NCBI RefSeq assembly: GCF_014280175.1
Contig: NZ_CP047931.1
Coordinates: 360,001 to 392,000, forward strand
DNA length: 32,000 bases
Direction of reading: 5' to 3'
Source: Synechococcus sp. A15-28
GTDB taxonomy: Bacteria > Cyanobacteriota > Cyanobacteriia > PCC-6307 > Cyanobiaceae
Part shown: positions 15,805-30,912 of the stretch, piece after piece
Numbering within the stretch: the stretch's first letter is position 1
Layout: every line of letters begins with the position of its first letter
Notes under the pieces: generated by a model
The model's input: only the letters and a program-made list of their open reading frames with translations
Database searches by the model: none
Told to the model about the DNA's origin: nothing
Position numbers and translations under genes: made by a program

Positions 15805-15895
15805 ACCACTGCTGTCAGAATGACAGGGTTCGGTTCTCCGGACTAGGTGATCCACACCAGTGTTTCGGACAGCGGTTCGATTCCGCTCAGCTCCA
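15805..15895 (+). ncRNA. ssrA: tmRNA acceptor piece of a permuted two-piece ssrA (5' boundary approximate)
   Basis: GGACTAGG...TGTTTCGGAC is followed by T arm AGCGG-TTCGATT-CCGCT (15871-15887), 3' acceptor strand CAGCTCC (15888-15894) and discriminator A (15895). CCA is not encoded. Confidence 0.8.
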
Positions 15896-15910
15896 TTCTC
15901 CCTTTCACGA

Positions 15911-16110
15911 GGGGCTGCAATGGTTTCGACGGGGCATGAGGAGGGTGACTGAAGCCTGCTCGGTGAGAGCAAACCCGTAACTGCGAACAACATCGTTCGT
16001 TTCTCCCGTCAAGCAGCCCCTGTTGCTGCCTGACCCTTAGGGGAGATGGGGTGAAGTCAGCCTTATCACCCAATTGACTCATGGGGGCTGTAAGGCCCCT
16101 TCAACTCATC
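15911..16110 (+). ncRNA. ssrA: tmRNA coding piece of the permuted ssrA (3' boundary approximate)
   Basis: Begins GGGGCTGCAATGGTTTCGACGGGG. GGGGCTG pairs with CAGCTCC, giving the G3:U70 alanine identity pair. The tag frame at 15983-16033, GCG AAC AAC ATC GTT CGT TTC TCC CGT CAA GCA GCC CCT GTT GCT GCC TGA, encodes (A)NNIVRFSRQAAPVAA*. Terminal hairpin at 16084-16099. Confidence 0.8.
16064..16086 (+). repeat. att core copy 1 (attL), within the tmRNA coding-piece 3' region
   Basis: TATCACCCAATTGACTCATGGGG. Its partner at 24925-24947 differs at one base. Confidence 0.75.
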
Positions 16111-17159
16111 CCAAGGGAACGGATCTGGCAATTACGCCAGAGCCCGAAAAATCCCTTTCCGACAAATCTTCCGACAAGCTCCCGCCCGTCTTTGCCGGGC
16201 TAGATAAGGCGGAGGCTTTGGCCTACGTCAGCCGCTTGTTTGATGCGGCAGCCGCCGGCGCCGTGCTCTGGGGGGACAAGCTCCTCCTGAAGCGATTCCT
16301 TGAGCAGTGCTCGCGCACCGGCTCCCAGGAGACCAAGGACGGCTATCGGCGAGAGCTGCAGCACTTCACTCGCTGGCGTGACCAGAACCACCCACACATG
16401 CACCTGAGGGAACTCGATCCCGCGCTGGTGGATGACTGGGTCTCTTCCTTGCGTGAGCAGGTGGAGGCAGGGGAGCTAAAACCGCGTTCCTTCAACCGCC
16501 GCATCAGTGCGGTGAGCGCCCTTTACCGGTGGGCCGCGGAACCTACCCGATCAACTGTGTCAGGAGTGCCGCGGAACCCAGTCCCCCGAAGAACAGGAAT
16601 GTCGGCACCAAAGTTGGCCAAGCCGTTGGCTGAGTCTGATCTGACATCAGTCCTGGGAGTCATCAGTGCCGCGAAGGTAAAAGGCTCCGCCATTGCTGCG
16701 CGTGACTATGTGATGGTCCGCGGTTCGTATCTGATTGGTTGTCGCGTGTCTGAACTGTGCCGGCTCCGCTGGCAGGACATTGAGCGATTGGATAACGGCG
16801 GTCAGGTTTCCCTTTTGGGCAAGGGGAACAAGCCCCGCACGATTCGTGTCAGCGTCGCAACCTTGGAGCTGTTTGAGTCGTTGGGCCGCGGCGAGCCTGA
16901 AGACTGGTTGTTTCCGAGCGACCGGCGTGAGGGCCCAATGACTCGTCAGGCAGTCGCAGCTCGCATGGCGAGGTGGGGAAAGGAGGCTGGGGTGAGGCTC
17001 TATCCGCATCGTTGTCGTCACACGCATGCCACGAATGCTGTTCGCGCTGGGACAAGCCTTTTTGTTTTGCAGGCAACTCTTGGCCACAGCTCATCTGCAA
17101 CGACTGGTCATTACGTTGCCGCCAACCCTGAAGACAGTTCTTCTCTACGACTTGGGTGA
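16074..17159 (+). CDS. Tyrosine recombinase / phage-type integrase (int1)
   Basis: Catalytic signature R (GCRVSELCRLRW), HxxR (HRCRHTHATNAV) and H...Y (LGHSSSATTGHYV). The longest ORF starts at a TTG inside the att core. The true start may be downstream, for example TTG 16218. Confidence 0.88.
   Translation: MTHGGCKAPSTHPKGTDLAITPEPEKSLSDKSSDKLPPVFAGLDKAEALAYVSRLFDAAAAGAVLWGDKLLLKRFLEQCSRTGSQETKDGYRRELQHFTRWRDQNHPHMHLRELDPALVDDWVSSLREQVEAGELKPRSFNRRISAVSALYRWAAEPTRSTVSGVPRNPVPRRTGMSAPKLAKPLAESDLTSVLGVISAAKVKGSAIAARDYVMVRGSYLIGCRVSELCRLRWQDIERLDNGGQVSLLGKGNKPRTIRVSVATLELFESLGRGEPEDWLFPSDRREGPMTRQAVAARMARWGKEAGVRLYPHRCRHTHATNAVRAGTSLFVLQATLGHSSSATTGHYVAANPEDSSSLRLG
16157..16177 (+). promoter_or_regulatory. 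Doublet TTCCGACAA-N3-TTCCGACAA (candidate arm-type recombinase site, left end)
   Basis: TTCCGACAAATCTTCCGACAA. Nearly the same doublet, in the same orientation, occurs at 24789-24808. Confidence 0.45.
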
Positions 17160-17550
17160 CGTAAGCAGAATTGTGTAAAGTCGTTTTTAATTGCAATTAG
17201 GCATAAAGAAGGGGACAGTTTTCACATGCCCCCTTCCCTGCCTGAAGTTTGCAAGGAGCACCCCTGCACATTCAATTTAGCGCCATTGCTCCGCTTGTAG
17301 GAGCTTTTTTAATGGCAAAACTGCCCTAAAGCTCTGCATTTGAGCTTATTTTGTTCAAATGATGGCTAGAATATGATTGTCACTCTGGAGGCTTAAATGA
17401 CTGTCAGAGATCCATTGACTGTCAAAGAGGTGCGAAAACTTTGTGAGTCGCGCTTACGCATCTAGCGGGATCAATCTACTCCTGATGATGATCTGCCGAA
17501 TGTTCCTGAGTGTCCACTGACTAATCCGTCAATCCATCGACTTATTGACA

Positions 17551-17955
17551 ATGTTTGATCTCGATCAGGAAGTGGCTAAAGCCCACCAGTCTGTAACCGA
17601 AATAGAGAGCCAGGCCAGGGCGATTGAGGCACGAATCAAGAAGATTGATGGGGCTGACAACCTGCTGCCCAAGAGGGCCTATGGCAAATCCATTGATACC
17701 GCTGCAATCGCCAGATCTTTAACCCTGCGTTCTTTGCTGGCAAAGAACGATCCCCAGCTCGCCAGTTACTTAGGTGTGGGCACCGATGCCCACATCAGAG
17801 CAGAAGAGGAAAAGGAAGCTCGCCGTCTGCGCGCACAGGCCCTGGGGATGAAGACTGAAAAGATTCGCGCTCAAAATCAGGCTGCTGCCCTTCATCGAGA
17901 GCGTGCTTCCCTTGCTGGGGTTAGTCCATTGACAGGCCGGAGGCTTGGACAATGA
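17551..17955 (+). CDS. Hypothetical coiled-coil protein
   Basis: ATG at 17551. First gene of a + strand cluster whose members overlap by ATGA. Charged helical composition with no recognisable motif. Confidence 0.5.
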   Translation: MFDLDQEVAKAHQSVTEIESQARAIEARIKKIDGADNLLPKRAYGKSIDTAAIARSLTLRSLLAKNDPQLASYLGVGTDAHIRAEEEKEARRLRAQALGMKTEKIRAQNQAAALHRERASLAGVSPLTGRRLGQ

Positions 17956-18293
17956 GAACTGCTAAGTGCCATCCTCAGCTCGGCTGGCTTCGGCTTGAGC
18001 CTTACGACTATTCACGCTCACTGGATCACCTTTTGGCGTGTAGGGACAGAGATTCTGATCTGACTCGTAGCGGGCCTAGCCCGGAGTACATCAGTTGGAT
18101 GTGGTCGACGGAGCTGCCTGGGCTGATGCGGAAGGAGAAATACAGAGATCAAGTTCGTCAGCACTGTTCTGACCTTGCTCGTAAGTCCGAGGAGTTGGAC
18201 ATCGACATCCGTTCGATTGTCGGGTCGAAATTGGAGCAGCAGGCAAAAGCCGACGAGTTAAGAGCACAACTGACTGCGCTGTTGGATGAATGA
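17952..18293 (+). CDS. Hypothetical protein
   Basis: 113 aa with ATGA overlaps at both the upstream and downstream junctions. Confidence 0.5.
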   Translation: MRTAKCHPQLGWLRLEPYDYSRSLDHLLACRDRDSDLTRSGPSPEYISWMWSTELPGLMRKEKYRDQVRQHCSDLARKSEELDIDIRSIVGSKLEQQAKADELRAQLTALLDE

Positions 18294-18508
18294 TCACTTC
18301 CGATGTTCAGCATGTCGCAACAGTTCTTGCGTCTACCCATCGCCAACATCCAGAGACCTTGCATTCTTTGGTGCCGATGTTCGGCGGACTGATCGTGATC
18401 ACCAACCGCCAGCTCCTTTTGCACCTGCTGGATACGGAGACTGATTGGCCATGGCAAGAGCCACCGCAGCAGAGACCGCCGAACGGGTTGGTCAGCTCCA
18501 AAAACTGA
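18290..18508 (+). CDS. Hypothetical small protein (doubtful)
   Basis: 72 aa. Overlaps the previous stop by ATGA but overlaps the next gene by ~58 nt. Confidence 0.3.
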   Translation: MITSDVQHVATVLASTHRQHPETLHSLVPMFGGLIVITNRQLLLHLLDTETDWPWQEPPQQRPPNGLVSSKN

Positions 18509-18810
18509 TCCTTGAAGGTCAAAACAGCGCGTCTTGTCTTGCCTTTGCGAGACAAACGTGGGGGCTCAGCCGAGCGCAGGGTTACAAGCTGATCAAGAGA
18601 GCGTGGGCTCAGATCAAAGACGACATCGAAGAGGCCGGCATAGATCGGCACGAAATGCTGGCTTGGTCAATCCAGAACTTGATGGCGGCGGCAGGCCAGG
18701 CAAAGCAGCAGAAGAACCCCGGCGCTTTGGTGAGCGCCATTCGCCAGCTTGATTGGATGTGCGGTCTTGGCGTCAACTCACATGCCGGGCATCGAGTCCA
18801 CAGGCATTGA
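18451..18810 (+). CDS. HTH-containing protein, paralog of 31585-31965 (possible small-terminase-like or regulatory protein)
   Basis: ATG 18451 is preceded by GGAG. N-terminal HTH-like segment LILEGQNSASCLAFARQTWGLSRAQGYKLIKRAW. Aligns by eye with the 126-aa ORF at the window end (L.LI..G...A......WG.SR). Confidence 0.55.
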   Translation: MARATAAETAERVGQLQKLILEGQNSASCLAFARQTWGLSRAQGYKLIKRAWAQIKDDIEEAGIDRHEMLAWSIQNLMAAAGQAKQQKNPGALVSAIRQLDWMCGLGVNSHAGHRVHRH

Positions 18811-18910
18811 GTGTCGTAATAGATATTGCGCCTCTGGCAGACGAGATCGACATTTGATTAGTAATTAGGTTTTGACTGCTTTCGTCGATCGAATTGATAA
18901 CTGAGTCGTC

Positions 18911-19210
18911 TCAGTTGGAGATGAAACAGTTGTCTGGTGTGTAGCCAAGGAGCAACATCGTTGAGATTCCCAATAGCCACCCAACGAATACCGCTCCCCA
19001 AATTAATTGGTCTGTGCTGAGATTTACGTTCCTCATAAGTGTTCCTCGATACATAGATTGTTGCATCTTGCACTTGCAATCATTGCTTGCTTCGTTTGGC
19101 GATGCTGTATCGATTGTATGTTTAATCAAAAATGGTTTAACCATCCAAAACTTTTCGTCATAGGCAGTCAGAACAAGGATTGCAGAAGCTGCGGCTGGTG
19201 GGACCCACAA
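18911..19210 (-). CDS. Hypothetical two-TM membrane protein
   Basis: TTG start with two hydrophobic helices (AAASAILVLTAY; LIWGAVFVGWLLGISTMLLLGY). Third gene of a minus-strand trio of small membrane ORFs. Confidence 0.4.
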   Translation of the reverse strand: MWVPPAAASAILVLTAYDEKFWMVKPFLIKHTIDTASPNEASNDCKCKMQQSMYRGTLMRNVNLSTDQLIWGAVFVGWLLGISTMLLLGYTPDNCFISN

Positions 19211-19228
19211 GGTTGACCGACGTCTGAA

Positions 19229-19318
19229 TCAGAATGACTCAATCAACCAAGTCACTATGGATAAGGCAATAGCAACTATCAAGAGCGTTGCTTTCTTCGG
19301 CTTCCGCTTCAAAGCCAT
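19229..19318 (-). CDS. 29-aa single-TM peptide
   Basis: MALKRKPKKATLLIVAIALSIVTWLIESF. Not in the ORF track. Lies 4 nt downstream of the preceding small ORF. Confidence 0.35.
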   Translation of the reverse strand: MALKRKPKKATLLIVAIALSIVTWLIESF

Positions 19319-19322
19319 TAGG

Positions 19323-19421
19323 TCAACCAGCTGTGAACAAGGTAAACAGCAGCAAAGAGGCCCACACAGCAATCAGCAGGGTCTTTCGATTGAGCTTCTG
19401 ATCAGTATTGTCAGCTGGCAT
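19323..19421 (-). CDS. 32-aa single-TM peptide
   Basis: MPADNTDQKLNRKTLLIAVWASLLLFTLFTAG. Not in the ORF track. Confidence 0.35.
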   Translation of the reverse strand: MPADNTDQKLNRKTLLIAVWASLLLFTLFTAG

Positions 19422-19721
19422 TGGAGGTGTTTGTAGAGCCTTCGTTAGGAATCCTGTGTATCACCAGTTGCTGCTGCAGAAGGTTCAGGAGCAGCACTTT
19501 CAACAATATGGAAGCGGTTAAGACCTCTAGAGGGATGTGAGTCAGGAGTTCAGAGCTGGCTCATGTGATTACGCCGGTTTTAGCACAATCGGTTTTGTCG
19601 GATCCTCGCTGAGTTTTGCGGTATCTGATTACACATCTATTAAGGTGTAAGGCCATAAGCCCTGTTTTTACGTTGTTGTCGAGGCTATATGTTGTGTGAG
19701 TTTGTGAGGGGGAGAACAGGT

Positions 19722-20195
19722 TCAGGACTTTCCCTTTGCTTTCTCCAACTGGCCGATGATGAAATGCCGGTACTGTGCGGCTAGATCTTGAAATCCCTGT
19801 TCAACCAAACCGGCAATCACGTCAACCGCATCGTCTTCATGCTCGGGAATCAGCATTACCCCACGTTTGCGGCCAAGGATCATCTCCTGAATGATCGTTT
19901 GCGTCTTGCGTGGTGTGCCTGAGGGCTCCTCAAGTACTTCCTGGGCAGGAATGAATCGCGCACGGTGCTGATCATCGGAATTGATCTGTGCAATGAAGCA
20001 ATACTGAGCACCATTAATCTCGACCAATCCCCTGAATTCGGAGAGGTCTTCTGTGGCATCAACACAACAGAAGTTGTTGCTCTGGGATGGTGCTTTTCCA
20101 TCAAAGCCACGAATTCTGGTGATAGTCGCTTTGGCACTGAAAGACTCCTGAGTCAGCCGGGTTACCAACGACTCACATATGGTTCGCTTATTCAA
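19722..20195 (-). CDS. Hypothetical protein (island cargo, no recognisable domain)
   Basis: 157-aa ORF in low-G+C DNA downstream of the replication module. Confidence 0.55.
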   Translation of the reverse strand: MNKRTICESLVTRLTQESFSAKATITRIRGFDGKAPSQSNNFCCVDATEDLSEFRGLVEINGAQYCFIAQINSDDQHRARFIPAQEVLEEPSGTPRKTQTIIQEMILGRKRGVMLIPEHEDDAVDVIAGLVEQGFQDLAAQYRHFIIGQLEKAKGKS

Positions 20196-20292
20196 GACAA
20201 ATTAGAGTCAAGCCATATTTGAGCTGCTTCAAGCGCTACTATTTGTAGCTGCTGATACTTTTTGAGTCCGTCTACTGACTTGACGCAATTTT

Positions 20293-20334
20293 GATTACGA
20301 AGAAAGGGCCAGGAGTATCAGTGCTATCCTGGCC
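20293..20334 (-). terminator. Probable intrinsic terminator after the 128-aa cargo gene
   Basis: On the minus strand: GGCCAGGA-(12 nt)-TCCTGGCC followed by CTTTCTTCG, starting 10 nt after the stop at 20344. Confidence 0.5.
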
Positions 20335-20343
20335 TGAGGAGTT

Positions 20344-20730
20344 TTATGAACTGGCTGTAAGCGTCCAGATTTTTTTGTCAGTTATCCAATCTATTTGGTG
20401 AATAGCATTACCGAATGTCCAATGATACGACTCATAAAATCCTTCCCAGGATTGGCAATGAGGCTGAAAAATTTCTACTTTGTATATCCAAATTTCATAC
20501 TCACAATCCCACGCACCGCAGATGTTTGCGTTTTTGTACTTCCAGCACCCTGCGCCAGAATAGTCCAACGCTATGTTTTGAGGTTTGCTTTCTGATTTAA
20601 AGCGTTTAAGTAATCCCCCGAGTAATTCATTGATCTTGTTTTGGATTAAATCTGTGTGTTCGGGGCTGTCTTTGTATAATTCATCTAAGTACGACGAAAT
20701 TTCTTGGATAGTGCAATGGTGAAAAGACAT
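20344..20730 (-). CDS. Hypothetical Cys/Trp-rich protein (island cargo)
   Basis: 128-aa low-G+C ORF with no recognisable motif. Confidence 0.55.
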   Translation of the reverse strand: MSFHHCTIQEISSYLDELYKDSPEHTDLIQNKINELLGGLLKRFKSESKPQNIALDYSGAGCWKYKNANICGAWDCEYEIWIYKVEIFQPHCQSWEGFYESYHWTFGNAIHQIDWITDKKIWTLTASS

Positions 20731-20761
20731 AGTGTGATTGTTGGAAGGGTTTAGACGTTTT

Positions 20762-20782
20762 TACTGTCCCTACTGTCCCTAC
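20762..20782. repeat. Tandem TACTGTCCC x2 (+TAC) between the primase-helicase and cargo genes
   Basis: tactgtccc tactgtccc tac, followed by an 8-bp-stem hairpin CTCTTTTC-aataaata-GAGAAGAG at 20783-20806. Confidence 0.8.
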
Positions 20783-20839
20783 CTCTTTTCAATAAATAGA
20801 GAAGAGATAGGGAGTATGTAAGAGAGTGAACAAGTGGTG

Positions 20840-22834
20840 TTAGCGGGTCTGGACGGGATGGCCACTTGTCAATGGCGGGAAAAATGCGTTGACCCGTTGC
20901 CCGTCGATGCGTCTTCGCGCCTTGTGCCATCCCAGGTCTGCCATCAGCTCAGTAATGCGCTTCGCGTTTTGGCCGTTCTGGCGTTCAGCGCCAATGTCCA
21001 ATTCGCGATAAACGTCCTGGAGCTCGATGTATGCAGCACCAGATCGCCTGAGCACGATGTCTCGGATCAACTCTTCCCAAGGGTCTGGCATGTCGTAACC
21101 CGCATTACGGGAAACGATTTCATCCAGCTCTGATTCAGTACTGAACCACTGGAAGCCATCTCGATAGGCAGCCAAGGCCCGGGCCCAGAACGCATCACGG
21201 CCAAGCCGAACACGTTCGTAGGGGAGCATCTCTTCACCGAGCGGAATCAAGCAGAAGCGTGTGCTGCCAGTTCGATCAACCAATGGCGATCGATTTGCTG
21301 TTCCCCAGAACACTGAGCGCCGTGGGATTCGTTCCGTGCCCTTGCCGTACTTTCGCCGACATAAGTCGGTTGTTCGGCTGATGAAGGCCTTGAGCCTTTC
21401 TGCACTGGTTTTGCGAGTGAAGCCATCAAATTCGGCAAACTCGACCCCCCAGCAGAGCGCCATCAGGGTTACATCGTCGACATCCATGCGAAAGCTAATT
21501 CCGTCGCCATACCACTGATCACTGAACAAGGCCCGTCCAAGTTGTGTCTTGCCGATGCCCTGGGCTCCCAGGAGAACTGGCACCTGCCGGACTAAGCAGC
21601 CTGGCTGAAACACCCTGGCAATCGCTGCCACAGCGAAACGCTGCATGAAGCGAGCGGTGATGGCGTCGTCGATGTTGAACAGCCACTGGTCCAAGCGTTC
21701 CCATTGCTCGTTTGGCAACGGTTTTGCTTTCAGGTTTCCGATGTAGATCTGCACCGGATCAAACGGAGTATCAGCGCCCAGGGTGATGAAGGTGTCTGCT
21801 GTAAGCCGCTTCGGCCAGTTCAACTCGCCACGACTTAGGTACAGATAAAGGTTTTCGACTTCGTCTGCAGTGAACTCTCGTCCTTTGCAGTGAATCCCCT
21901 GGCTCCTCACGTTGAGCATTGGGGTTTCCCCCAGCTCATCAGTCATCCGAGCCAATGCTTCGCCGGCCTTGACCGTTTTCTGTTTCCGCAACTCGTGTTG
22001 CGACACATCCAGTCGGAACAAGGCCGCTTCACCAACGGCAGTGGTTTTGTCGCCGGAGTAAATCCAGCTGTTCCCATTCCGTTCAATCTTTTCGCGTAGC
22101 TCCAGTTTTGGTGGAGCCCACCGCTTGCCTATGTGGCAAAGGATCGCCTGGCCATCGCTGCTGATACGACAGTCCGGTTCCTTCCGCCCGCAGATGGGAC
22201 ATGGGATGCAGTCTTCCCAACCATCGGCTCGTAGGCCATGAGTCTTTCTTGAGTTGGTAGGGGCCGGGGAGCTGCACTCGCTGATGGCCGTCTGGTACAT
22301 CGCCCAAACTTCATCCGGCACTGGCTGGATGGTGTCGGGATTGCCCGTCAACCAGGAGTAATGACCTCCAGATTTGACGTGTTCGCCTGCCACAAGGACC
22401 TGGCCGCTGCCGAAGAAAAACTCCAGTTGCTCGCCGTCGGCAGTCTTTAAGACGGTTTTGCCAGTGCACTGACTCCACCGTTCTTGAGGCACGCGATAGA
22501 CGGCCTTGAAGCGGCTTTGATTGTTATCACGGCCAATCGTCCAGGTCTTGCTGTTGTTGGCAAGGTGCCCGAAACGCTCTGCCGCAACGTGAATTGCGGA
22601 AGGGCCGTCAAAGTCCAGAACCAGTAGCCCCCCGGCGTCTGGCCCACACCTCATTCCGATGCAGCGAAGTCCGTCGAAGTTGAGAACCTGCTGAAGGCTG
22701 AACCATTGGTTCGGCCAATCGGTCACCATCGGTGCTTTGCAATCAGCCCCCCAGCCACAGGGGAGCAACGGCAACTCATCAAGCAGCCTGAATTCTTCCC
22801 GCCACCAAGCGGGGGTTTGTTGTGTCGCTGTCAT
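20840..22834 (-). CDS. Bifunctional primase-polymerase (PrimPol) fused to a VirE/D5-type SF3 helicase
   Basis: 664 aa. N-terminal PrimPol pattern (LPLLPCGWGADCKAP...GLLVLDFDG). Central Cys cluster CIPCPICGRKEPDCRISSDGQAILCH. Walker A GAQGIGKT, Walker B VEFAEFDG and the VirE-type motif DRTGSTRF. Confidence 0.9.
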   Translation of the reverse strand: MTATQQTPAWWREEFRLLDELPLLPCGWGADCKAPMVTDWPNQWFSLQQVLNFDGLRCIGMRCGPDAGGLLVLDFDGPSAIHVAAERFGHLANNSKTWTIGRDNNQSRFKAVYRVPQERWSQCTGKTVLKTADGEQLEFFFGSGQVLVAGEHVKSGGHYSWLTGNPDTIQPVPDEVWAMYQTAISECSSPAPTNSRKTHGLRADGWEDCIPCPICGRKEPDCRISSDGQAILCHIGKRWAPPKLELREKIERNGNSWIYSGDKTTAVGEAALFRLDVSQHELRKQKTVKAGEALARMTDELGETPMLNVRSQGIHCKGREFTADEVENLYLYLSRGELNWPKRLTADTFITLGADTPFDPVQIYIGNLKAKPLPNEQWERLDQWLFNIDDAITARFMQRFAVAAIARVFQPGCLVRQVPVLLGAQGIGKTQLGRALFSDQWYGDGISFRMDVDDVTLMALCWGVEFAEFDGFTRKTSAERLKAFISRTTDLCRRKYGKGTERIPRRSVFWGTANRSPLVDRTGSTRFCLIPLGEEMLPYERVRLGRDAFWARALAAYRDGFQWFSTESELDEIVSRNAGYDMPDPWEELIRDIVLRRSGAAYIELQDVYRELDIGAERQNGQNAKRITELMADLGWHKARRRIDGQRVNAFFPPLTSGHPVQTR

Positions 22835-22848
22835 AGGGGTGCTCCGAT

Positions 22849-23106
22849 TCAGCGACGTGGCGAGCAGTCACGCGAGAAGGTTTCAACCTCTTCGCTCGGC
22901 TGGTGTTTGTAGTTCCACAGGCTCTGGATTGCCTGCTCTTTGTTCCATCGGATCTTGCGTGTGCCAAGTCCGACGTACTGCCAGTCCCGATGCTGTTTGA
23001 ACGGGCCGTTCGGGTCCCGTCGCATCCGAAGAATGGTTTCTGGGCAAAGATCAGTCGCTTCAGCGAACTGTCTTGTTGACGCAATCGACATTGCGATAAC
23101 TCGCAC
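22849..23106 (-). CDS. Excisionase/AlpA-like HTH protein (Xis-like), paralog of 25339-25608
   Basis: STRQFAEATDLCPETILRMRRD...WQYVGLG...EVETFSRD aligns with STQECADALGIHPQTLRKLRRH...YRWVGLS...AVETYSRG. Start is GTG 23106 or ATG 23091. Confidence 0.65.
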   Translation of the reverse strand: MRVIAMSIASTRQFAEATDLCPETILRMRRDPNGPFKQHRDWQYVGLGTRKIRWNKEQAIQSLWNYKHQPSEEVETFSRDCSPRR

Positions 23107-23108
23107 CC

Positions 23109-23432
23109 TTAGGTGCGGGGGGTGCCATCCCAGTTCTCGTGATGCAGAAGTTCGCGCTGGAGGGCTGCGTAAAAGTTCCGCAGCTTGTCCCGTCGCTTCT
23201 GATCGGGGTTGCCCTGCTCAAGGGTGCCGATGCGGAAGTCGGGGTCGTCCATACGGGCGCGCTTCTTGGTGAAGTAGCGGACTTGCCGCTCGGCGTACCG
23301 ACGATCGACTCCCTTGGGAGTCAACATCTCGACGCGAGTGGGGATGGGCCGATCAGGACCTTGCATCCAACTTGGATGACGTTTTCGGTTCGATCCCTCG
23401 GCGCAGACGTGATGCTGCGTTCCCGACTTCAC
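23109..23432 (-). CDS. Hypothetical basic protein between int2 and the xis-like gene
   Basis: 107-aa ORF co-directional with int2; its stop lies 2 nt before the xis-like start. Confidence 0.5.
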   Translation of the reverse strand: MKSGTQHHVCAEGSNRKRHPSWMQGPDRPIPTRVEMLTPKGVDRRYAERQVRYFTKKRARMDDPDFRIGTLEQGNPDQKRRDKLRNFYAALQRELLHHENWDGTPRT

Positions 23433-23500
23433 CTAGTTAACTTAACACCACTGATCGCGATCGTCAGGCAATCTCCCTACCGATGACACCAAATGTGGTG

Positions 23501-24760
23501 TCAGGGCAACGGGATCGTCTCCGCGTCTGACTCAAAGGCCCGAGCTTTGATCGCCTCTGTGATCTGCCGATAGCTGCGCTCATGCACCGCGAGTGAGTGC
23601 CCCATCGCATCCGCGATCACCGTCTTCTCCAGCCCCTCCCGATAGCAGCGAACTCCGAAGCCATCTCTCAGCGAATACACCCGAACCCAGTCCTTCGTCG
23701 GGAGCGCGGCGTATTTATCGATCAGCTCCTTCCACCGCTGCTGAACCGGCCCGGCTGGCTTCCCGTTGCGCTTCCTGTGGAGGTAGCGATTGCAGGCGTG
23801 ACCGGTGAACTCCTTCAGGTCCGGCAGCTTCAACGTCCCCGCCTCCCACGCTTCCACCAGCGGCCACTGCACCGGCTTGTCGTGCTCCGATCGCCGGAAG
23901 TGCATTGGGCGGAGATACCGCGGCTCGGTGTCCTCCTGGCCGCCGACCTTCTCGTAGGAGCAATAGAAGACCCTCTCGCCGGTCTTGCTCGTCGGGTCCG
24001 GCTCCACTGTTAGGTGCTGGATCTCGACTGGACGTAATCCGTATTGCGCCAGCAGTCGGAACAGGTTTGCCCAGGCCGGGTTCTCCTGTTGCACCAGATC
24101 GATGAAGTCCAGGATCTCGGCGTCCTCCAGCACGGCCTTCTTCCGTTTCCTTGTCCGCTTGGGGCACAGCTCGTCACGGTCGGCCTGGGTGATGAGCCAG
24201 GAGCGCGGGACCTTGTATCGGCGGACCGCGAACTCCATGAACCGGGCCAGATACCGGCCACATTCCTTCTGGACTGTTGGGGCATGGGCCCAGTTCTTCA
24301 GCACGGCCTTGAGCAGCTCGTAGCCATCGGCAGGTTTATTGCGCCGGCCCAGCACCCTCACCGCTTCATTGAGGATCGGCTCCCAGTTGGTTTTCCAGGT
24401 CTGCGGCTTGATCTGCTTGCCGAACTCAATTTTCGATTCCTTCATGGCCGCGGCAATGCCGGCCCAGGTGACCTCATCCCCCCTTTCGGGGGGAACGTCG
24501 CTGCTGCCCTTCACCTCCGCCAGGCATTCCTTCAGCGTCCGCTGCCCTTCGGCTGCGCTCCAGACCTTGTAGAGCCGGCGTGACCAGTTGATCGCCGCCT
24601 CCTCGTCCTCCTCCCGATAACGGAGCTTGGGGAGGTTCACCTGCTCCCGCGCTTGGCCGGCTACCCGGTATCGGATGCAGACGTATCCCTTGTCGTTGGT
24701 GATGCTCCAGCCGGGCCACTTGCTGCTGATCGACACCAGCCGCATCTCCCACACGGGCAT
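23501..24760 (-). CDS. Tyrosine recombinase / integrase (int2), a different family from int1
   Basis: R (YGLRPVEIQHL), xLRD box (VYSLRDGFGVRC) and H...Y (MGHSLAVHERSYR). ATG at 24760 (MPVWEMRLVS). The ORF track extends to TTG 24808 across the arm-type repeats. Confidence 0.85.
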   Translation of the reverse strand: MPVWEMRLVSISSKWPGWSITNDKGYVCIRYRVAGQAREQVNLPKLRYREEDEEAAINWSRRLYKVWSAAEGQRTLKECLAEVKGSSDVPPERGDEVTWAGIAAAMKESKIEFGKQIKPQTWKTNWEPILNEAVRVLGRRNKPADGYELLKAVLKNWAHAPTVQKECGRYLARFMEFAVRRYKVPRSWLITQADRDELCPKRTRKRKKAVLEDAEILDFIDLVQQENPAWANLFRLLAQYGLRPVEIQHLTVEPDPTSKTGERVFYCSYEKVGGQEDTEPRYLRPMHFRRSEHDKPVQWPLVEAWEAGTLKLPDLKEFTGHACNRYLHRKRNGKPAGPVQQRWKELIDKYAALPTKDWVRVYSLRDGFGVRCYREGLEKTVIADAMGHSLAVHERSYRQITEAIKARAFESDAETIPLP

Positions 24761-24788
24761 CTCGCTGAGATTGCGACGCGGCACGCTC

Positions 24789-24808
24789 TTCCGACAAATT
24801 TCCGACAA
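24789..24808 (+). promoter_or_regulatory. Doublet TTCCGACAA-N2-TTCCGACAA (candidate arm-type site, right end of element 1)
   Basis: TTCCGACAAATTTCCGACAA, in the same orientation as 16157-16177. Confidence 0.45.
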
Positions 24809-24924
24809 ACAAGTCTTGTTTGGTTGTCGACGGTCGTCAAGGGTTGCCTACGGGATTAGGCTGTGACTGGCTTTTCTCCGAGAAGCCCTGAAACCAATGT
24901 TGTCGTAATCAGGCGAGTCATGCC

Positions 24925-24947
24925 TATCACCCAAATGACTCATGGGG
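24925..24947 (+). repeat. att core copy 2 (junction between element 1 and element 2)
   Basis: TATCACCCAAATGACTCATGGGG. The flanks are also similar to the 16051-16105 region, including a hairpin at 24945-24960. Confidence 0.75.
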
Positions 24948-25000
24948 CCTGGAAGGGCCCTTAACCATTTCACTGCAGGCGATCTCGGCAAACCTGGTTT

Positions 25001-25040
25001 TCGGGATAAATCAGCTTCGGGATAAATCTCGGGATAAATC
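25001..25040 (+). promoter_or_regulatory. Three direct copies of TCGGGATAAATC (candidate arm-type or iteron sites)
   Basis: Exact 12-mers at 25001-25012, 25017-25028 and 25029-25040, beginning 54 bp right of att core copy 2. Confidence 0.55.
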
Positions 25041-25338
25041 GCTCGGAGCGGCTCTGTGCAGTCGACAGGCGCTGATGAGACCCCTAAGTTCTTAGTGCGA
25101 GGTCGGAGCCGTCCGATCTTGAAAGCAGCGCAGACCAGGTCCCAACGACCCTGCGTTAGTCAAATGAGAGGTAGCCCTGTCAGCGGTTCTCTCGGCTTGG
25201 TTGGGCAAGTGTTTCTGACAGGTCGCAATCGGTGGAGTAAAGCAGCAAGCCGCAAGCGGAAACAGCTACAGGACGGCGAAGACGAAGGGATGGCTTAGCG
25301 GACGGCCTGACCTGAAGCTCGCTCAGCACAGAGATGCT

Positions 25339-25608
25339 GTGACCGCAACCAACGCTGCCGTGACCCAATGGGTCTCCACCCAGGAGTGCGCTGACGCTCT
25401 TGGCATTCATCCACAAACGCTGCGAAAGCTCCGGCGTCATCGGATCCCGCTTTTCAAGGAAGGCCGCGACTACCGATGGGTTGGCCTCAGTACCAGCAGC
25501 ACCCTTCAGTGGCATGTCCACAGTGCGAGCCAGGCGTTCACCGATTTCCGTTTGATGCCTGCTGAGGCGGTTGAGACCTACAGCCGTGGGAGCAGAGCCC
25601 ATGCCTGA
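25339..25608 (+). CDS. Excisionase/AlpA-like HTH protein (Xis-like), paralog of 22849-23106
   Basis: See the alignment under 22849-23106. GTG start at 25339 or 25360. The antisense 157-aa ORF is rejected. Confidence 0.65.
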   Translation: MTATNAAVTQWVSTQECADALGIHPQTLRKLRRHRIPLFKEGRDYRWVGLSTSSTLQWHVHSASQAFTDFRLMPAEAVETYSRGSRAHA

Positions 25609-25891
25609 ACAACTCATGTCCGAGCTTGATGTGATCGAGTTGCCGGATGGCACCAGTCACAAGGTCAAAGGTGATGTCATCTCCGTTTTGATTCCGAGGA
25701 AGGATCGGAAGTGCTGGGTGGTACTTCATCTCCAAATCAGCAGAGACAACACGCTTCACTGCCACCTGCGTGGCGGCCACTGGGACTCAATGGCTCACAA
25801 CTGCGATCCAGACAGAACATTCGATCTGGATTTTTACAACGCACTTGAATCTGAAATCAGAGAAGACATGGAGGCCAGTGATGTCCGCTGA
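25601..25891 (+). CDS. Hypothetical protein
   Basis: ATG at 25601 overlaps the xis-like stop (ATGCCTGA); 96 aa. Confidence 0.45.
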   Translation: MPEQLMSELDVIELPDGTSHKVKGDVISVLIPRKDRKCWVVLHLQISRDNTLHCHLRGGHWDSMAHNCDPDRTFDLDFYNALESEIREDMEASDVR

Positions 25892-26099
25892 TCTCTACAC
25901 CCGCCCGCTTCGTGCTTCGGTGCGTGAGCTTCTACAGGAAGACAACATCGACATCGCTGAAGCTCTTTATTCCGACTGCGATTATCCAACAGCACTCAGC
26001 AATCTTGCTGAAGTTCGTGTAGCTGCGCAGAAGGTGGTATTTGAAGCTGATGCGTTGATGTGCGCAGTGCTTGTTAAGGCGATAGGAGAAGACGATTGA
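25881..26099 (+). CDS. Hypothetical acidic protein
   Basis: ATG at 25881 overlaps the previous stop by 11 nt; 72 aa. Confidence 0.45.
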   Translation: MSADLYTRPLRASVRELLQEDNIDIAEALYSDCDYPTALSNLAEVRVAAQKVVFEADALMCAVLVKAIGEDD

Positions 26100-26185
26100 A
26101 TCATCATATGGGCGGGTAATTCTCGCCCATTGTTGACACTTTTAGTTCATCTCTCAAAATGGACTCATAAGATAAATTGGATCTT

Positions 26186-26356
26186 ATGAAATTCAAGCCG
26201 CGTTGCAAGTATCCGCACATTGCTGCGACATACCTAAGCGATGAACTGCTCAATGAAGTCAACAAATTTTGCGTCGACAACGAATGCAGCAAATCAGAAG
26301 GAATTCGCCTCCTGATGCAGAACGGCCTTGCCGCAATGCTTCTGGACGAGGCATAA
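26186..26356 (+). CDS. Ribbon-helix-helix (CopG/Arc-like) DNA-binding protein
   Basis: 56-aa ORF not in the ORF track: MKFKPRCKYPHIAATYLSDELLNEVNKFCVDNECSKSEGIRLLMQNGLAAMLLDEA. It shows a beta-strand, helix, SKSEGIR, helix pattern. Confidence 0.55.
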   Translation: MKFKPRCKYPHIAATYLSDELLNEVNKFCVDNECSKSEGIRLLMQNGLAAMLLDEA

Positions 26357-26397
26357 AAAAACCACCGTGCCAGCGGTGGCTCAAAAATCAGGTTCCC

Positions 26398-26592
26398 ATG
26401 AAGTCTACTTTGAAAAGACCATCATTCCCAGATGACTGGGAACAGGAGCCAGCGTCTCCGTTGGTCCTTGATCAGGTACTGAGTCCCGAGTGGCAAGACC
26501 TTGCTTTGCTAATGGCCTGCAGGGAAATTGCCAAGATGAATCGGCTGACATTGGAAGAACAGCTTCATTGCTGGAGGCCTTTTGATGTCTAA
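26398..26592 (+). CDS. Hypothetical protein upstream of, and overlapping, the helicase start
   Basis: 64 aa starting at ATG 26398. Its stop overlaps the helicase ATG at 26585. Confidence 0.4.
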   Translation: MKSTLKRPSFPDDWEQEPASPLVLDQVLSPEWQDLALLMACREIAKMNRLTLEEQLHCWRPFDV

Positions 26593-28258
26593 ACCGGATG
26601 AGAACAAGGATGCCTGGGAACGACTAGTTGTTCTTAAGGAGTTGGATCGCGATTCAAGCTTTAAGCCAGGCTATGACTACAAGACAGATCTCAAGCTCGC
26701 ACTCAGAAAGCGTGATGAGCCCGTTACTACGGTCACGAATAGATCCGCAAAAAATACCAAGCCGCTGGTTCTTAGCACTGCAGAATATATTGAGGAATTA
26801 AGTAAGAAGGCCGACATAATCGTTGCCGACACCAGCATCCCAACGACACACCGGCTCATCCATCTCCGCAACGTAGCGACCGGCTTCCCAACGAGCTTTA
26901 AGGATGCGGAGTTACAGAGATTGCTTTGGGATGCAAGGCGTAGACTGGCTCCAGGTGCAAAGCCAATAGGCCAAGGCGGGAAATTATCAAGACGTCAAGC
27001 TCCCTGGTTGTGGGATGGCATCCTTATCAAATCAACGACCAACTTGGTTGTTGCATTACCAAAGGTCGGCAAAAGCCGTCTGATAAGCCAGGTTATTGGC
27101 AGGCTTGCCAAAGGTGAAGATGAGTTTCTTGGTCGCAAGCTCTTTGGTCCCTGCCCACCAGTCTTGATAGTTGGGACTGATCAACCAGAGCCAGATTGGG
27201 CAGAGTGTCTGGGTTTAGCCGGTCTTTTAGATGCCGATGGCGCAATGCACTCTTGCATCAAAGAGCTGTATCACACCGGTTGTCCTCTTCATTTAGATGA
27301 GGATGGTATTGACCGGATAACTGAGCTATGTCGGCAGTATCCAGGAATGCTTATCCTGGTTGATAGCTATGCAAAATGTACGAATAATTTGGGAATTGTG
27401 GAGTCAGATTCGCAATACGCTGGCCCGCTTATGGATTTGCAGGAAGCGACTGCGCCATATGGTGCGACCTTGGTCGTGATTCATCACAGCAACCGAAATT
27501 CAGCAGGCGGTCGTGCTTCGATGTCCTCTCGTGGAACAACTGCATTACCTGCAGCAGTTTCACAAACGATCAGCTTGACCTGGGCCAACGCAGATGATGC
27601 AAACCCGTTAGCTAAGCGTGATGGCCGCGTCAAACTCAACACCGAAGGACGTGGTGGCAAACCACAGGATCTTCTAATTGAGCAGATTGAGGACGGTCAC
27701 GACTGGCTCCTCCACGGAACTGGTGAGGAAATTGCAGTACAGAGTGCGCTTGAGAAGCTGATAGAGGCTTTGACAGATCGCCAATATGCTGCGCTTAGAG
27801 ATATGGCTCATCACTACAACGCCACTGGTTGTGGAATGGATGCTCGGCATCTTGCAGATGCCCTTGATCTGTCACCACACGGCAGAGTAAAGGCGCAAGA
27901 AGTACTGGATTCGCTCAACAGGAAGAAGTTAATTGAGCCTGCCGGCAACCGGCCTGCGTTGGGATCTGACGGTGGCAAACCTGCAAATCTCTATCGGCCA
28001 GTTGACGCAGTCCTTCCCTTGTTTGCATTATCAGCTTCTATACCTTTCAAACCTTCTATTGATAACGTAACGGTTACGAAAACAAAAGAAGGTATAGAGG
28101 ATATGAAAGGTGATTCTTTATACAAGGAAATGATGCTCACTTGTGAATGCTGTGGCAAGGAGTTTGCTGCCAACAAAAAAGGAACGGCCAAGAAATACTG
28201 TTCGGAGACCTGCAGGGTTCGTGCGTATCGCGATCGCAAATCTCGCAATGCTGCTTAG
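26585..28258 (+). CDS. RepA/AAA_25-like RecA-fold replicative helicase with C-terminal wHTH-like region and zinc ribbon
   Basis: Walker A LPKVGKS, Walker B MLILVDSY and VVIHHSNRN. C-terminal CECCGKEF...CSETCRVRAYRDRK. Confidence 0.85.
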   Translation: MSKPDENKDAWERLVVLKELDRDSSFKPGYDYKTDLKLALRKRDEPVTTVTNRSAKNTKPLVLSTAEYIEELSKKADIIVADTSIPTTHRLIHLRNVATGFPTSFKDAELQRLLWDARRRLAPGAKPIGQGGKLSRRQAPWLWDGILIKSTTNLVVALPKVGKSRLISQVIGRLAKGEDEFLGRKLFGPCPPVLIVGTDQPEPDWAECLGLAGLLDADGAMHSCIKELYHTGCPLHLDEDGIDRITELCRQYPGMLILVDSYAKCTNNLGIVESDSQYAGPLMDLQEATAPYGATLVVIHHSNRNSAGGRASMSSRGTTALPAAVSQTISLTWANADDANPLAKRDGRVKLNTEGRGGKPQDLLIEQIEDGHDWLLHGTGEEIAVQSALEKLIEALTDRQYAALRDMAHHYNATGCGMDARHLADALDLSPHGRVKAQEVLDSLNRKKLIEPAGNRPALGSDGGKPANLYRPVDAVLPLFALSASIPFKPSIDNVTVTKTKEGIEDMKGDSLYKEMMLTCECCGKEFAANKKGTAKKYCSETCRVRAYRDRKSRNAA

Positions 28259-28700
28259 ACCTGTGCAGCAAGCACCAGCGTCTTCGGGATGCGCCTCAGC
28301 CCACCGGCAACGTATGCCTCCCAGCAAGTGGCCGTGGCAGATCCGGTGCGCTGAAAGTTTTCTCAGCGAAAACTTCCACAAAGTCAACTTTACGAGAGAT
28401 ACCTCCTAGAGGGCAGGCCAAAGCACGAAACGGCCTGTGTGTACCTTCAACGATGAGATTTCCAAGCGATTGGGCATTGGTGATGTGGATCGTCATGGGT
28501 AAAACCTTATTTCCTTTGGTCTAAGCCTGCTCATTCGGAGGATGTCGTACCACATCTCACCAAACAAAAGTTTTCAGCCACATCAACGTAACGTGTAATT
28601 TTCCTCTAACGGCTTAGGTGATGTAAAACAGTCACGCCAAACAGCAATGTACGCTTTCCATTGCTACTAATCTACGGATATCCCGCGCCAGACTGACGTC

Positions 28701-28931
28701 ATGAAATTTCTCGTCTTGCCCTTCTCAATGCTGTTCATGGCAGAACCTGCGCTCTCTTCCAGCGACAAGCAAGTCTTCCTGTCAATGCAGAAGTTTGAGC
28801 AGGTGGCTGACAGGGCACATGCCTTCTGCGCGAGCGTTGACCTTGAGTTCTCTCAAAAGTTCTATGACTGCATGGACAAGAAGATGCATGGAATTTATAT
28901 CGACAGCAGCACGGTTAGATCACGTAATTAA
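28701..28931 (+). CDS. Small secreted protein
   Basis: 76 aa with signal peptide MKFLVLPFSMLFMAEPALS and Cys residues in the mature part. Confidence 0.5.
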   Translation: MKFLVLPFSMLFMAEPALSSSDKQVFLSMQKFEQVADRAHAFCASVDLEFSQKFYDCMDKKMHGIYIDSSTVRSRN

Positions 28932-29132
28932 GACGAATACGGGTCCTTCTTGTGTAGTACAGCGTAGGTTTCTTCAGATCGCCTTCATTATTTAGCGCCA
29001 GATAAGTTGGGCCTAAATTGCTTAGCACTATCTATTAGCGAAACTAATCAAATTAGTGGTCATTAGAAGGCGATAGCACGGTGGACTGGTCTGCACACTG
29101 TTCTCCCGTACGGCTTTCCAGTACTGCCTTAC

Positions 29133-29513
29133 CTACGCACTGCTCAGGACATCTTCGCGAAAAGCTTTTTGTCGTTCGACCACATCCTGACACCGGATTA
29201 CAGGAGTGAAGTCCATCTCAATGCCGAATTGAGGACGCCATGGCGCGAAGGCTTCAAAGATCTGAGCATCACTCTCTGCCTTAAACAAAATTGTTACTCG
29301 GCCTGCGCAAGGTGCGTGGACGCGGAACAACATTTCAAAGCCATCAAAGTTGTCTAGCTTCGCTATTTCTCCTGAATCCCACAGCTCACAGAAGCATTTG
29401 TAAGCAGCCAGTTGACCTTCAATCTCAGGAAAAACGCAATCCGCGAGATACATCTGCATGGGAAGTACGAAGAAGGAGTCAGCCATTTGATAGGCATCCC
29501 AAGGTTTTGCCAC
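29133..29513 (-). CDS. Hypothetical protein, possibly DUF3303-like
   Basis: 126 aa. The C-terminal pattern APWRPQFGIEMDFTPVIRCQDVVE resembles the DUF3303 tail, from recall only. Confidence 0.5.
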   Translation of the reverse strand: MAKPWDAYQMADSFFVLPMQMYLADCVFPEIEGQLAAYKCFCELWDSGEIAKLDNFDGFEMLFRVHAPCAGRVTILFKAESDAQIFEAFAPWRPQFGIEMDFTPVIRCQDVVERQKAFREDVLSSA

Positions 29514-29714
29514 TGTTCAGTTGATTAGATCGTGACAATGGAATGTCAGCGCCGGAACGGCTTATGCGAGTGGCTCCCACGGAAGTGAGCTTCAAATTGC
29601 CTGTGCAGCTGCGGCTACAACGACATCATGTGCCGACTATTGATGCGGGCTTACTCACATTGATGGAACAAACAGACCTGCTGAGCCATGACAGGGGGGT
29701 TAAGCATTAAAACC

Positions 29715-29843
29715 ATGGCTCGCTTACTTCAATTTGTTCAGAAGTCGAAGAAAGCTGATTTGGCAGCTTCAACTGCTGTCGTCTTTGCTTGCATCACAGC
29801 TCTCGCCCTATGGGGTGTTTCGAATGCTTATCCAGCACTTTGA
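29715..29843 (+). CDS. 42-aa single-TM peptide
   Basis: MARLLQFVQKSKKADLAASTAVVFACITALALWGVSNAYPAL. Not in the ORF track. Confidence 0.3.
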   Translation: MARLLQFVQKSKKADLAASTAVVFACITALALWGVSNAYPAL

Positions 29844-30051
29844 ATGACAAGCTGATCGAGGCTCACCTAAGGGTCTGAACGAAAGCTAGGACCATCGCTG
29901 CGGTGACTACAGTTTACTGTAAAACTGGCTGTTTTATAATACTCTTAAAAGCCAAGCTGTATGTATCCCAAATACGCGTTTTAGTGCCCAAACGTCAGCT
30001 TCCTATTCAGGCTGACCTGATCGTGAATCGCCTTCCACAAGATCTTATTAT

Positions 30052-30606
30052 TTAGAATGTGCAGAAGGGACTAGTCTGCATATCCCACAATGCATCAAGC
30101 CCGCAATCAAAGCTATTCTCGGGATCAAACAATCTAGAATAACTTTGCCCGCGATATCCATAGTTATAATCGCCATAGCTGGTACTAGAAGAATCAGATG
30201 ACGTAGATTCATCTGAACCTTGATATGATTCTCCTAAATCTCTATCACTGGAATTAGAAAATAGGAAGTCACTTGAATCAATATTTGACAAATTGCTAAG
30301 ACGAGCAATTACGCCACCTTTCTTTCCAAACCCTTTGCCAGCTCCATTGCGATTCCTATAGAGAAAACCCTTCTTTTGATCAAAAATTAAATCAACATCA
30401 TGTGTTGAATGAACCTTTCTTGCGTCTTTTCTGTTTTTAGCAAAGTGAATTGTTGTATCACCATCAAAGCTATAACTGATTAATTCAATTTTATTCGTAC
30501 CCTTCGAAAAGAGTGACAGATTATATTCTAAATATTTAGCTTTTTTGTTGCGACCTTGAAGAAAGATCTGGAAATTGTCGTCATTGTTGAGTGAAGGTTC
30601 TTTCAT
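30052..30606 (-). CDS. AT-rich hypothetical protein with an RTX/'bluetail'-like Gly-rich motif and Ser-rich tail
   Basis: Start at ATG 30606 (MKEPSLNND). DLIFDQKKGFLYRNRNGAGKGFGKKGGVIARLSNLSNIDSSDFLF resembles the C-terminal motif of cyanobacterial RTX-type surface proteins. This is the lowest-G+C stretch of the window. Confidence 0.55.
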   Translation of the reverse strand: MKEPSLNNDDNFQIFLQGRNKKAKYLEYNLSLFSKGTNKIELISYSFDGDTTIHFAKNRKDARKVHSTHDVDLIFDQKKGFLYRNRNGAGKGFGKKGGVIARLSNLSNIDSSDFLFSNSSDRDLGESYQGSDESTSSDSSSTSYGDYNYGYRGQSYSRLFDPENSFDCGLDALWDMQTSPFCTF

Positions 30607-30701
30607 GAGAATGCAATACCTAACATTATAATGGCTAAGTACCGTCAAAAATGTGGATCTAGAACGCAAGTCGTTCAGAGACGCGCCCGATACCGATACC
30701 G

Positions 30702-30893: not shown

Positions 30894-30912
30894 ATGATCA
30901 GGAGCTGACTAA

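Follow-up and report, generated by a model that had tools for sequence, protein, structure and literature searches.

Two low-G+C open reading frames (ORFs) that follow the primase-helicase gene of an integrated element in Synechococcus sp. A15-28 probably belong to different modules of that element, which is tycheposon-like: ORF128, of 128 amino acids (aa), is tied to the primase, and ORF157, of 157 aa, would be niche-adaptation cargo expressed from a promoter of the type recognized by the nitrogen regulator NtcA. The element lies in a stretch of 32,000 nucleotides (nt) (contig NZ_CP047931.1, positions 360,001 to 392,000), which is referred to as the window and provides the numbering used below; related loci and proteins from other assemblies carry L and P numbers, respectively. 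A first-pass annotation of this DNA had treated the two frames as a single candidate defence or interference locus. It was right that two real minus-strand ORFs follow the primase-helicase, both with ratios of nonsynonymous to synonymous substitution rates (dN/dS) well below 1, and that they are richer in AT than that gene (G+C 0.388 for ORF128 and 0.50 for ORF157 versus 0.566; three host genes range from 0.63 to 0.68). The upstream repeat, hairpin and terminator that it had assigned to ORF128 are likewise all present. The two frames do not, however, form one cargo locus: the homology that defines the backbone of the element ends between them, at ~20262-20283. The relevant features are as follows.

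20840-22834, minus strand: PrimPol and VapE/VirE-like primase-helicase, 664 aa (Prim-Pol, 2e-10; VapE-like, 2e-48)
20776-20813, minus strand: hairpin/inverted repeat overlapping the tandem 9-mer (folding free energy -25 kcal/mol, z = -3.15)
20762-20779, minus strand: tandem 9-mer (GGGACAGTA, twice on the minus strand) between the primase gene and ORF128
20344-20730, minus strand: ORF128, an acidic, Cys/Trp-rich orphan with an ATG start, directly after the primase gene
20299-20334, minus strand: intrinsic-terminator-like hairpin that ends the ORF128 module (folding free energy -15, z = -2.45)
20217-20258, minus strand: predicted NtcA-type promoter of ORF157 (sequence motif)
19722-20195, minus strand: ORF157, TTG start, first gene of the cargo cassette
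19323-19421, minus strand: pepA, 32 aa, basic N-terminus and membrane helix, 4 nt upstream of pepB (ratio of nonsynonymous to synonymous polymorphism, pN/pS, 0.43)
19229-19318, minus strand: pepB, 29 aa, basic N-terminus and membrane helix (pN/pS 0.24)
18911-19066, minus strand: pepC, 51 aa, single-pass membrane peptide with a hydrophobic 17-mer, last gene of the cassette (pN/pS 0.28)

The position of ORF128 was judged wherever its context was available. In all five independent loci (the window, L001, L016, L017 and L021) a homolog lies directly 3' of a primase gene of the same family, following the primase C-terminus, and the same arrangement is found in every near-identical copy of the element. 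Homology between the window and L001 or L017 runs through the inverted repeat, ORF128 and the terminator before it ceases. Because ORF128 is never absent after the primase and the backbone homology extends through its terminator, it belongs to a replication-proximal module of the backbone and is not variable cargo. The terminator itself, a perfect 8-bp G+C-rich stem (20307-20314 with 20327-20334) followed by the U-rich tract CUUUCUUC, is kept in L001 and L017, in L001 with one compensatory change from A-U to G-C; its 12-nt loop caused a simple terminator scan to overlook it. Within the inverted-repeat block ~36 of 40 nt are conserved in four diverged variants, against only 40-67% in the flanks.

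The L016 locus, which reads attachment site, second tyrosine recombinase (int2), 107-aa ORF, 85-aa ORF and primase, is informative as to how this module is exchanged. From the attachment site through int2, the small ORFs and the primase it shares 99-100% protein identity with the window, but its ORF128 is only 62% identical. At the nucleotide level, identity falls from ~100% to 80-90% at ~21040, in the 3' end of the primase gene, and is low throughout ORF128. A recombination breakpoint at ~21040 thus divides a 99-100% identical backbone from a divergent ORF128 module, and the primase tail, inverted repeat, ORF128 and terminator act as one exchangeable unit that is always present. A side observation concerns P0103 (L021 297-851), in which the first 52 residues of an ORF128 allele are fused to an unrelated C-terminus of 130 residues, and the DNA that follows is 89% identical to window 28265-28406, just past the AAA_25 helicase gene of a second, neighbouring element. 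The join may reflect recombination between elements past their replication genes, or else an assembly chimera.

ORF128 is under long-term purifying selection, with dN/dS values of 0.23-0.39, as compared to 0.07 for the adjacent primase segment. The near-clonal population of element copies gives another picture of its recent variation: five nonsynonymous and one synonymous segregating codons in 128, as opposed to two and two in the 664 codons of the primase gene and none in six other genes. By a rough Poisson estimate, the nonsynonymous density of ORF128 is ~10 times that of the rest of the element excluding the first recombinase gene, int1. The family is small, a profile search of 5.8e9 proteins having recovered nine clusters, all from marine metagenomes, and it is easily missed: the gene is left uncalled in several contigs (L027-L030) despite an intact frame. 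The metagenome-assembled genome (MAG) record L035 (NCBI GCA_002167425.2, contig NHBZ02000090.1) likewise has ORF128 unannotated, with its frame intact, between the primase gene and ORF157.

Such a pattern would suit a conflict protein as well as an accessory of replication or regulation; we infer that ORF128 goes with the replication module and serves either the maintenance of the element or a conflict. The accessory role has some claim to be considered, if only tentatively. ORF128 and its inverted repeat could act as an origin-proximal partner of the PrimPol/VapE protein, as its specificity factor, or as an autoregulator that binds the repeat. SaPI/PICI-type elements (Staphylococcus aureus pathogenicity islands and phage-inducible chromosomal islands) have their origin just 3' of the replication gene; here ORF128 invariably adjoins the primase gene, it is exchanged in a block that also takes in the 3' part of that gene, the inverted repeat and the terminator, and conservation is higher in the inverted repeat than in the coding sequences that flank it. 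Against such a role, the protein is acidic and contains no recognizable DNA-binding motif, the region shows no iteron array or AT-rich unwinding region beyond one inverted repeat and two 9-mers, and excess amino-acid polymorphism would be unusual for a core replication factor. The AlphaFold2 (AF2) model is of poor quality (predicted local distance difference test, pLDDT, 54), with no Foldseek match in PDB or BFVD at E <= 0.001, and offers no structural support.

ORF157 occupies a different kind of position. The slot at ~18850-20260, which holds the ORF157 cassette in the window, holds in L001 and L017 a convergent gene for a 373-aa protein resembling zinc metallopeptidases (Reprolysin_4, 1e-7; serralysin-family motif). 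The expectation of the first-pass annotation that a variable slot follows the replication genes is therefore borne out for ORF157 and fails for ORF128. Window 18853-20231 is 78% identical to L011 (Synechococcus AG-670-A05), and the cassette is partly common to L008 and L010, where the neighbouring backbone differs and consists of a D5_N/Pox_D5 primase and an integrase fragment. ORF157 and the three peptides encoded after it make up a ~1.4-kb exchangeable cargo cassette (about 18850-20260) with its own conserved promoter. The metallopeptidase-like protein measures 325-373 aa across L001 (851-1972), L017 and L022-L025, and a 240-aa ORF of the window at 30052-30774 is weakly similar to its C-terminus (31% over 73 aa).

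All three peptides are 100% conserved across the near-identical copies of the element, and none exists as a called gene in the protein collection. In L008, L010 and L011, pepA is conserved and stops at the same place, and the ATG and stop codon of pepB are kept; pepC is 82% identical in L011, with a conserved stop codon. The products of pepA and pepB resemble paralogs, in that each places a single membrane helix after a basic N-terminus. It is conceivable that the three peptides act like toxins or modulate membranes. As the first-pass annotation had found no recognizable motif in either ORF, it is consistent that ORF128, ORF157 and the small ORFs beside them gave no significant match in Pfam, PHROGs, PADLOC or NCBIfam.

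The promoter is found within a stretch of ~75 nt upstream of the ORF157 start that is conserved in chromosomal, island and mobile copies and is interrupted by in-frame stop codons, and hence non-coding, in both the window and the KORDI-52 genome. In the window, a perfect GTATCAGCAGCTAC box at 20258-20245 is followed, after 22 nt, by the -10 box TCAAAT (20222-20217). An alignment of 11 sequences gives the box the form GT(A/G)N8TAC(A), with G1, T2, T12 and C14 invariant, and the -10 element the form TnnAAT, with T1, A4 and T6 invariant. The spacing is equally constrained: all ten box-bearing loci place exactly 22 nt between the box and TCAAAT or TCTAAT, and 10 of the 13 loci have the composite GT[AG]N8T[AT]C-N22-(-10 box) exactly 63 nt upstream of the start codon. 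Nine of the 13 show its strict form, whereas 2000 shuffles gave 0.07 on average and never more than 2. The box coincides with the junction at which homology to the backbone gives out.

The published NtcA site is GTAN8TAC, in which G1, T2 and C14 are the most conserved positions, and activated promoters carry it centred near -41.5 (PMC5714215). A transcription start ~7 nt past the -10 box would put the centre of the ORF157 box at ~-41.5. We infer from this layout an NtcA-activated promoter, which the host NtcA would bind and which nitrogen limitation would induce. A riboswitch or structured leader was considered for the same region and set aside: RNAalifold predicts no pairs in the conserved stretch, and because no conserved structure is found, a promoter/operator is the better reading. 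NtcA-driven promoters on mobile cyanobacterial DNA have a precedent in cyanophages (PMC3037559). The nitrogen-stress gene of the P-SS2 paper was examined as a potential relative of ORF157; it is of the nif11-domain type and unrelated.

The history of ORF157 can be followed outside the element. Its homologs form 79 clusters, all with at least 63% identity, and the nine genome matches are all in Synechococcus, to which the family appears to be restricted. An exhaustive profile search of 1.8e9 representatives returned only 19, mostly fragments of its own family, and did not connect it to any remote family. Several Synechococcus genomes have homologs of 63-87% identity at a conserved chromosomal locus, where the genes run sigma factor, ORF157 homolog, Ap4A phosphorylase, SpoIID and, at some distance, MetH; this syntenic site was recognized in at least six loci (KORDI-52, PH41509, AG-670-B23, the CUG2137 MAG, another MAG and a 29-kb metagenome contig). 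The family is also represented in regions that look like islands and are crowded with small genes of no known function: L022-L025 have the homolog directly after a homolog of the slot metallopeptidase, and in Synechococcus MIT S1220 it adjoins sulfotransferase, NeuB and flavodoxin genes. In a simple neighbour-joining tree, copies from mobile, island and chromosomal settings are interspersed. Measured against the window copy, dN/dS is 0.06-0.33, indicative of purifying selection, and the TTG/GTG start is conserved among family members; L035 annotates a shorter, 148-aa start. We therefore regard ORF157 as the likely mobile copy of a Synechococcus chromosomal gene family. The AF2 model predicts an N-terminal helix, a four-stranded sheet and two C-terminal helices. 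Profile searches of ORF128 and ORF157 against PDB sequences gave chance-level matches only, and resemblances to PUR-alpha, monellin and curved-sheet proteins were weak and are not taken as evidence.

The chromosomal neighbourhood suggests another function, which we consider unlikely, namely that ORF157 is a partner or antagonist of the neighbouring sigma factor and that its mobile copy rewires the corresponding sigma regulon. The homolog is divergent from a sigma-70 family gene, with ~94 bp between them, the sigma gene scores best as SigF/SigB-type, and the divergent adjacency recurs in at least five chromosomal loci; moreover, ORF157 is small and predicted to be soluble, with a modelled C-terminal helical pair. 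However, adjacency is the only evidence. The two genes are not co-transcribed, the island and mobile copies lack a sigma gene nearby, and ORF157 displays neither an HATPase/RsbW or STAS match in Pfam nor a zinc-binding anti-sigma motif, with NCBIfam also empty. The SigF-like gene of KORDI-52 (L003 9228-9907) is called as two pieces of 189 and 37 aa and also appears split in L009; these split calls may be frameshifts or sequencing errors.

Based on the above data, we propose that the ORF157 cassette arrived in the slot of the element together with its own promoter. The host NtcA would then turn it on under nitrogen limitation, independently of the replication genes of the element, and the cassette would supply or boost a host-type stress-response function, serving niche adaptation and not phage defence. 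The niche-adaptation role is proposed because NtcA-dependent induction is deduced from the promoter. The ORF128 unit, in turn, would be exchanged between elements as divergent alleles, always after the primase gene.

Several observations weigh against this proposal. In five of the 11 aligned loci the left half of the box reads GTG, not GTA, two low-G+C relatives (L013 and L014) are without the box, and another regulator of the CRP family could bind it. The chromosomal copies of ORF157 are lower in G+C than their surroundings, so that a transfer from chromosome to element is not proven. The structural model of ORF157 is of moderate quality (pLDDT 67), and Foldseek found no match to it in PDB or BFVD at E <= 0.001. 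As for ORF128, the search for iterons around it yielded only the two 9-mers and no array that would mark an origin, and the protein gives no positive pointer to any particular function.

A bolder alternative, which we consider improbable, combines the two modules in another way: ORF128 would found a new family of conflict proteins, encoded beside the replication gene of elements that integrate at the tmRNA gene and acting, for instance, in interference with helper phages or rival elements or in anti-defence, with an arms race driving the swapping and diversification of its alleles, and ORF157 and the peptides would form a self-contained module induced by nitrogen starvation and traded between Synechococcus lineages. 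Somewhat less probable still is the idea of the first-pass annotation, according to which a satellite-like island carries both genes as cargo for anti-phage defence or helper interference. Conflict genes often show allele swapping and an excess of nonsynonymous polymorphism. ORF128 shows both, the two genes follow the replication module of an integrative element, the slot varies among relatives, and neither ORF has been assigned a benign function. These arguments are countered by the database searches: PADLOC-DB v2 returned no family for ORF128, ORF157 or six neighbouring ORFs at E <= 0.1, Pfam and PHROG have no match for either ORF and reveal no packaging or capsid genes among the tested ORFs of the element, and tblastn of 50,697 phage genomes together with pattern scans of IMG/VR detected no relatives of ORF128, ORF157 or the primase. 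The remote-homology and Foldseek checks that had been suggested gave no significant match for either protein. ORF128, never absent in relatives, is not variable cargo. For ORF157, the annotation had named confident homology to housekeeping or benign families as the outcome that would refute it, and what was found comes largely to that, namely the conserved chromosomal homologs and a conserved promoter of the host nitrogen-regulator type; nor do the homologs always occur in islands, which was one of the checks that it had proposed. A defence or interference role is thus unsupported for ORF157, and for ORF128 an arms-race role is a minority possibility, entertained because its alleles are swapped and its amino-acid polymorphism is in excess. 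That one or both ORFs are non-functional, as chance ORFs or decaying remnants in AT-rich island DNA, is very improbable, since each of the 11-12 near-identical copies, like the diverged relatives, preserves both frames, the dN/dS values of the two fall well below 1 and the TTG/GTG start of ORF157 is itself conserved, although gene finders leave ORF128 uncalled in several contigs and in the NCBI MAG record, ORF157 begins with TTG and the ORF128 homolog P0102 is frameshifted.

The preferred reading, that of a primase-linked ORF128 and an NtcA-type ORF157 cargo, places both in one integrated element. G+C is ~0.63-0.70 until ~16.1 kb of the window and 0.43-0.60 from there on. The element, of ~8.9 kb (about 16102-24962), is inserted at the 3' end of the transfer-messenger RNA (tmRNA) gene between 47-nt repeats, and, with its recombinases and primase, is the integrative element that the first-pass annotation had surmised. 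Its remaining features are given here.

15812-16099, plus strand: cyanobacterial tmRNA gene (ARAGORN; Rfam cyano_tmRNA, 310 bits)
16055-16101, tmRNA 3' end: left attachment-site repeat, a 47-nt direct repeat
16074-17159, plus strand: int1, XerC/D-like tyrosine recombinase (Phage_integrase, 2e-29, and Phage_int_SAM_1; NCBIfam tyrosine recombinase, 5e-37)
17545-18810, plus strand: three backbone ORFs of 136, 113 and 121 aa, no family match
22849-24808, minus strand: two small ORFs (85 and 107 aa) and int2, the second tyrosine recombinase (23501-24808; PHROG integrase, 6e-10 for int2)
24916-24962, plus strand: right copy of the repeat and right end of the element, 85% identical to 16055-16101

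The internal order is int1, three plus-strand ORFs, the ORF157/ORF128 region, the primase gene, two small ORFs and int2, a layout resembling that of tycheposons, with the recombinases identified from domain matches. The three plus-strand ORFs have homologs in L001 at 41-53% identity and in the same order, and they are 100% conserved across the near-identical copies. In L032 and L033, identity to the element ceases at the right repeat; a division of the element in two by a third attachment site was considered and rejected, no third copy having been found in the window. An Rfam scan reported the tmRNA and one tRNA and nothing else. A 67% identical homolog of int1 in L001 aligns from residue 39, and the true start of int1 is probably further in, the listed start of the ORF overlapping the tmRNA gene. 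Two tyrosine recombinases are thus found in one 8.9-kb element, one per end and each adjoining a copy of the repeat. In the near-clonal population int1 carries nine synonymous and ten nonsynonymous segregating codons, far above the rest of the element.

The element is active and mobile. In the assembly collection, 86 index blocks contain the exact ORF157 protein, and the whole element is present, with nucleotide identities of 99-100%, in eight marine metagenome contigs from BATS, TARA and elsewhere (L027-L034). To the left of the tmRNA gene, the host DNA is 99.6-100% identical to that of the window in L027 but only 70-82% identical in L028, L030 and L031. L029 differs further: its tmRNA (L029 9982-10360) is 77% identical, encodes another tag peptide (AKTSDTAANNIVAFSRQAAPVAA) and has tRNA-Thr, CpeT and a bilin reductase gene as its neighbours, yet the element there is 99% identical. 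This context indicates that L029 derives from a different host lineage or genomic neighbourhood. Because one element sequence sits in clearly different host lineages, the comparison indicates recent movement by horizontal transfer. An element from wild Synechococcus that is near-identical in hosts diverged by 20-30% provides clean evidence for such a transfer.

To the right of the element, window 24963-32000 is a second low-G+C element or island segment, in which the following were identified.

25339-25608: HTH_17/excisionase-like ORF
26582-28258: AAA_25 helicase
29133-29513: DUF3303 protein

Parts of 24963-25588 are ~93% identical in L029 and L030, and the tandem arrangement therefore recurs. 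This segment also contains, at 31063-31078, the sole perfect extended NtcA-type palindrome (TGTA-N8-TACA) of the window, where 0.04 would be expected; it lies in or near an ORF at 30916-31254.

Most tycheposon cargo is of unknown function, and nitrogen limitation is the main nutrient stress in much of the ocean. The ORF157 promoter offers a testable handle on such cargo and would link horizontal transfer to nitrogen limitation; if the connection to NtcA is true, the ORF157 family would be a candidate nitrogen-stress gene of marine Synechococcus. The analysis also tells apart a gene that is genuinely variable cargo and an orphan that evolves fast, stays with the primase and is often missed by annotation pipelines, and it points out three small membrane peptides that had escaped annotation.

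Marine cyanophages provide a parallel to the cassette, as mobile elements that carry a gene of host lineage together with an apparent NtcA promoter architecture (Sullivan et al. 2010, PMC3037559); here, in contrast, the carrier is integrative and non-viral, and the regulation is read from sequence alone. The promoter agrees with canonical NtcA promoters (Giner-Lamia et al. 2017, PMC5714215) in its invariant G1, T2, T12 and C14, its 22-nt spacer and its TnnAAT element, and departs from them in the third base of the box, which is A or G in the ORF157 family. The element shares with PICI/SaPI satellites and PICI-like tycheposons the succession of integrase, small DNA-binding protein, primase/replication gene and accessory genes, as well as a conserved cis element immediately 3' of the replication gene. 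Unlike them, it has no terminase small subunit, capsid, packaging or interference gene among its ORFs, as judged with Pfam and PHROG, and its proteins have no relatives in IMG/VR or phage genomes.

The closest resemblance is to the tycheposons of Prochlorococcus and Synechococcus. These target seven tRNA genes, including the tmRNA gene, and combine a tyrosine recombinase, a primase/helicase module and exchangeable cargo that is often nutrient-related (Hackl et al., bioRxiv 10.1101/2020.12.28.424599); in those of Synechococcus the recombinase is reported to adjoin the tRNA remnant at the distal end (Grebert et al. 2022, PMC8995045). Like them, the window element is inserted at the tmRNA gene and leaves a repeat of part of that gene, possesses tyrosine recombinases, one of them at the distal end as in Synechococcus, contains a VirE-type primase/helicase module and a short exchangeable cargo module, and stands in a tandem array with a second element. 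It differs from them in having two tyrosine recombinases, in its cargo, which comprises no recognizable nutrient-uptake operon but a host-like gene with an NtcA-type promoter and three membrane peptides, and in its primase-linked ORF128, for which no described counterpart was identified. A tycheposon with cargo of unknown function is thus a known kind of element; what is new is this particular element and its recent transfer, the split between backbone and cargo, the promoter-bearing host-like cassette, the unannotated peptides and the orphan ORF128 family.

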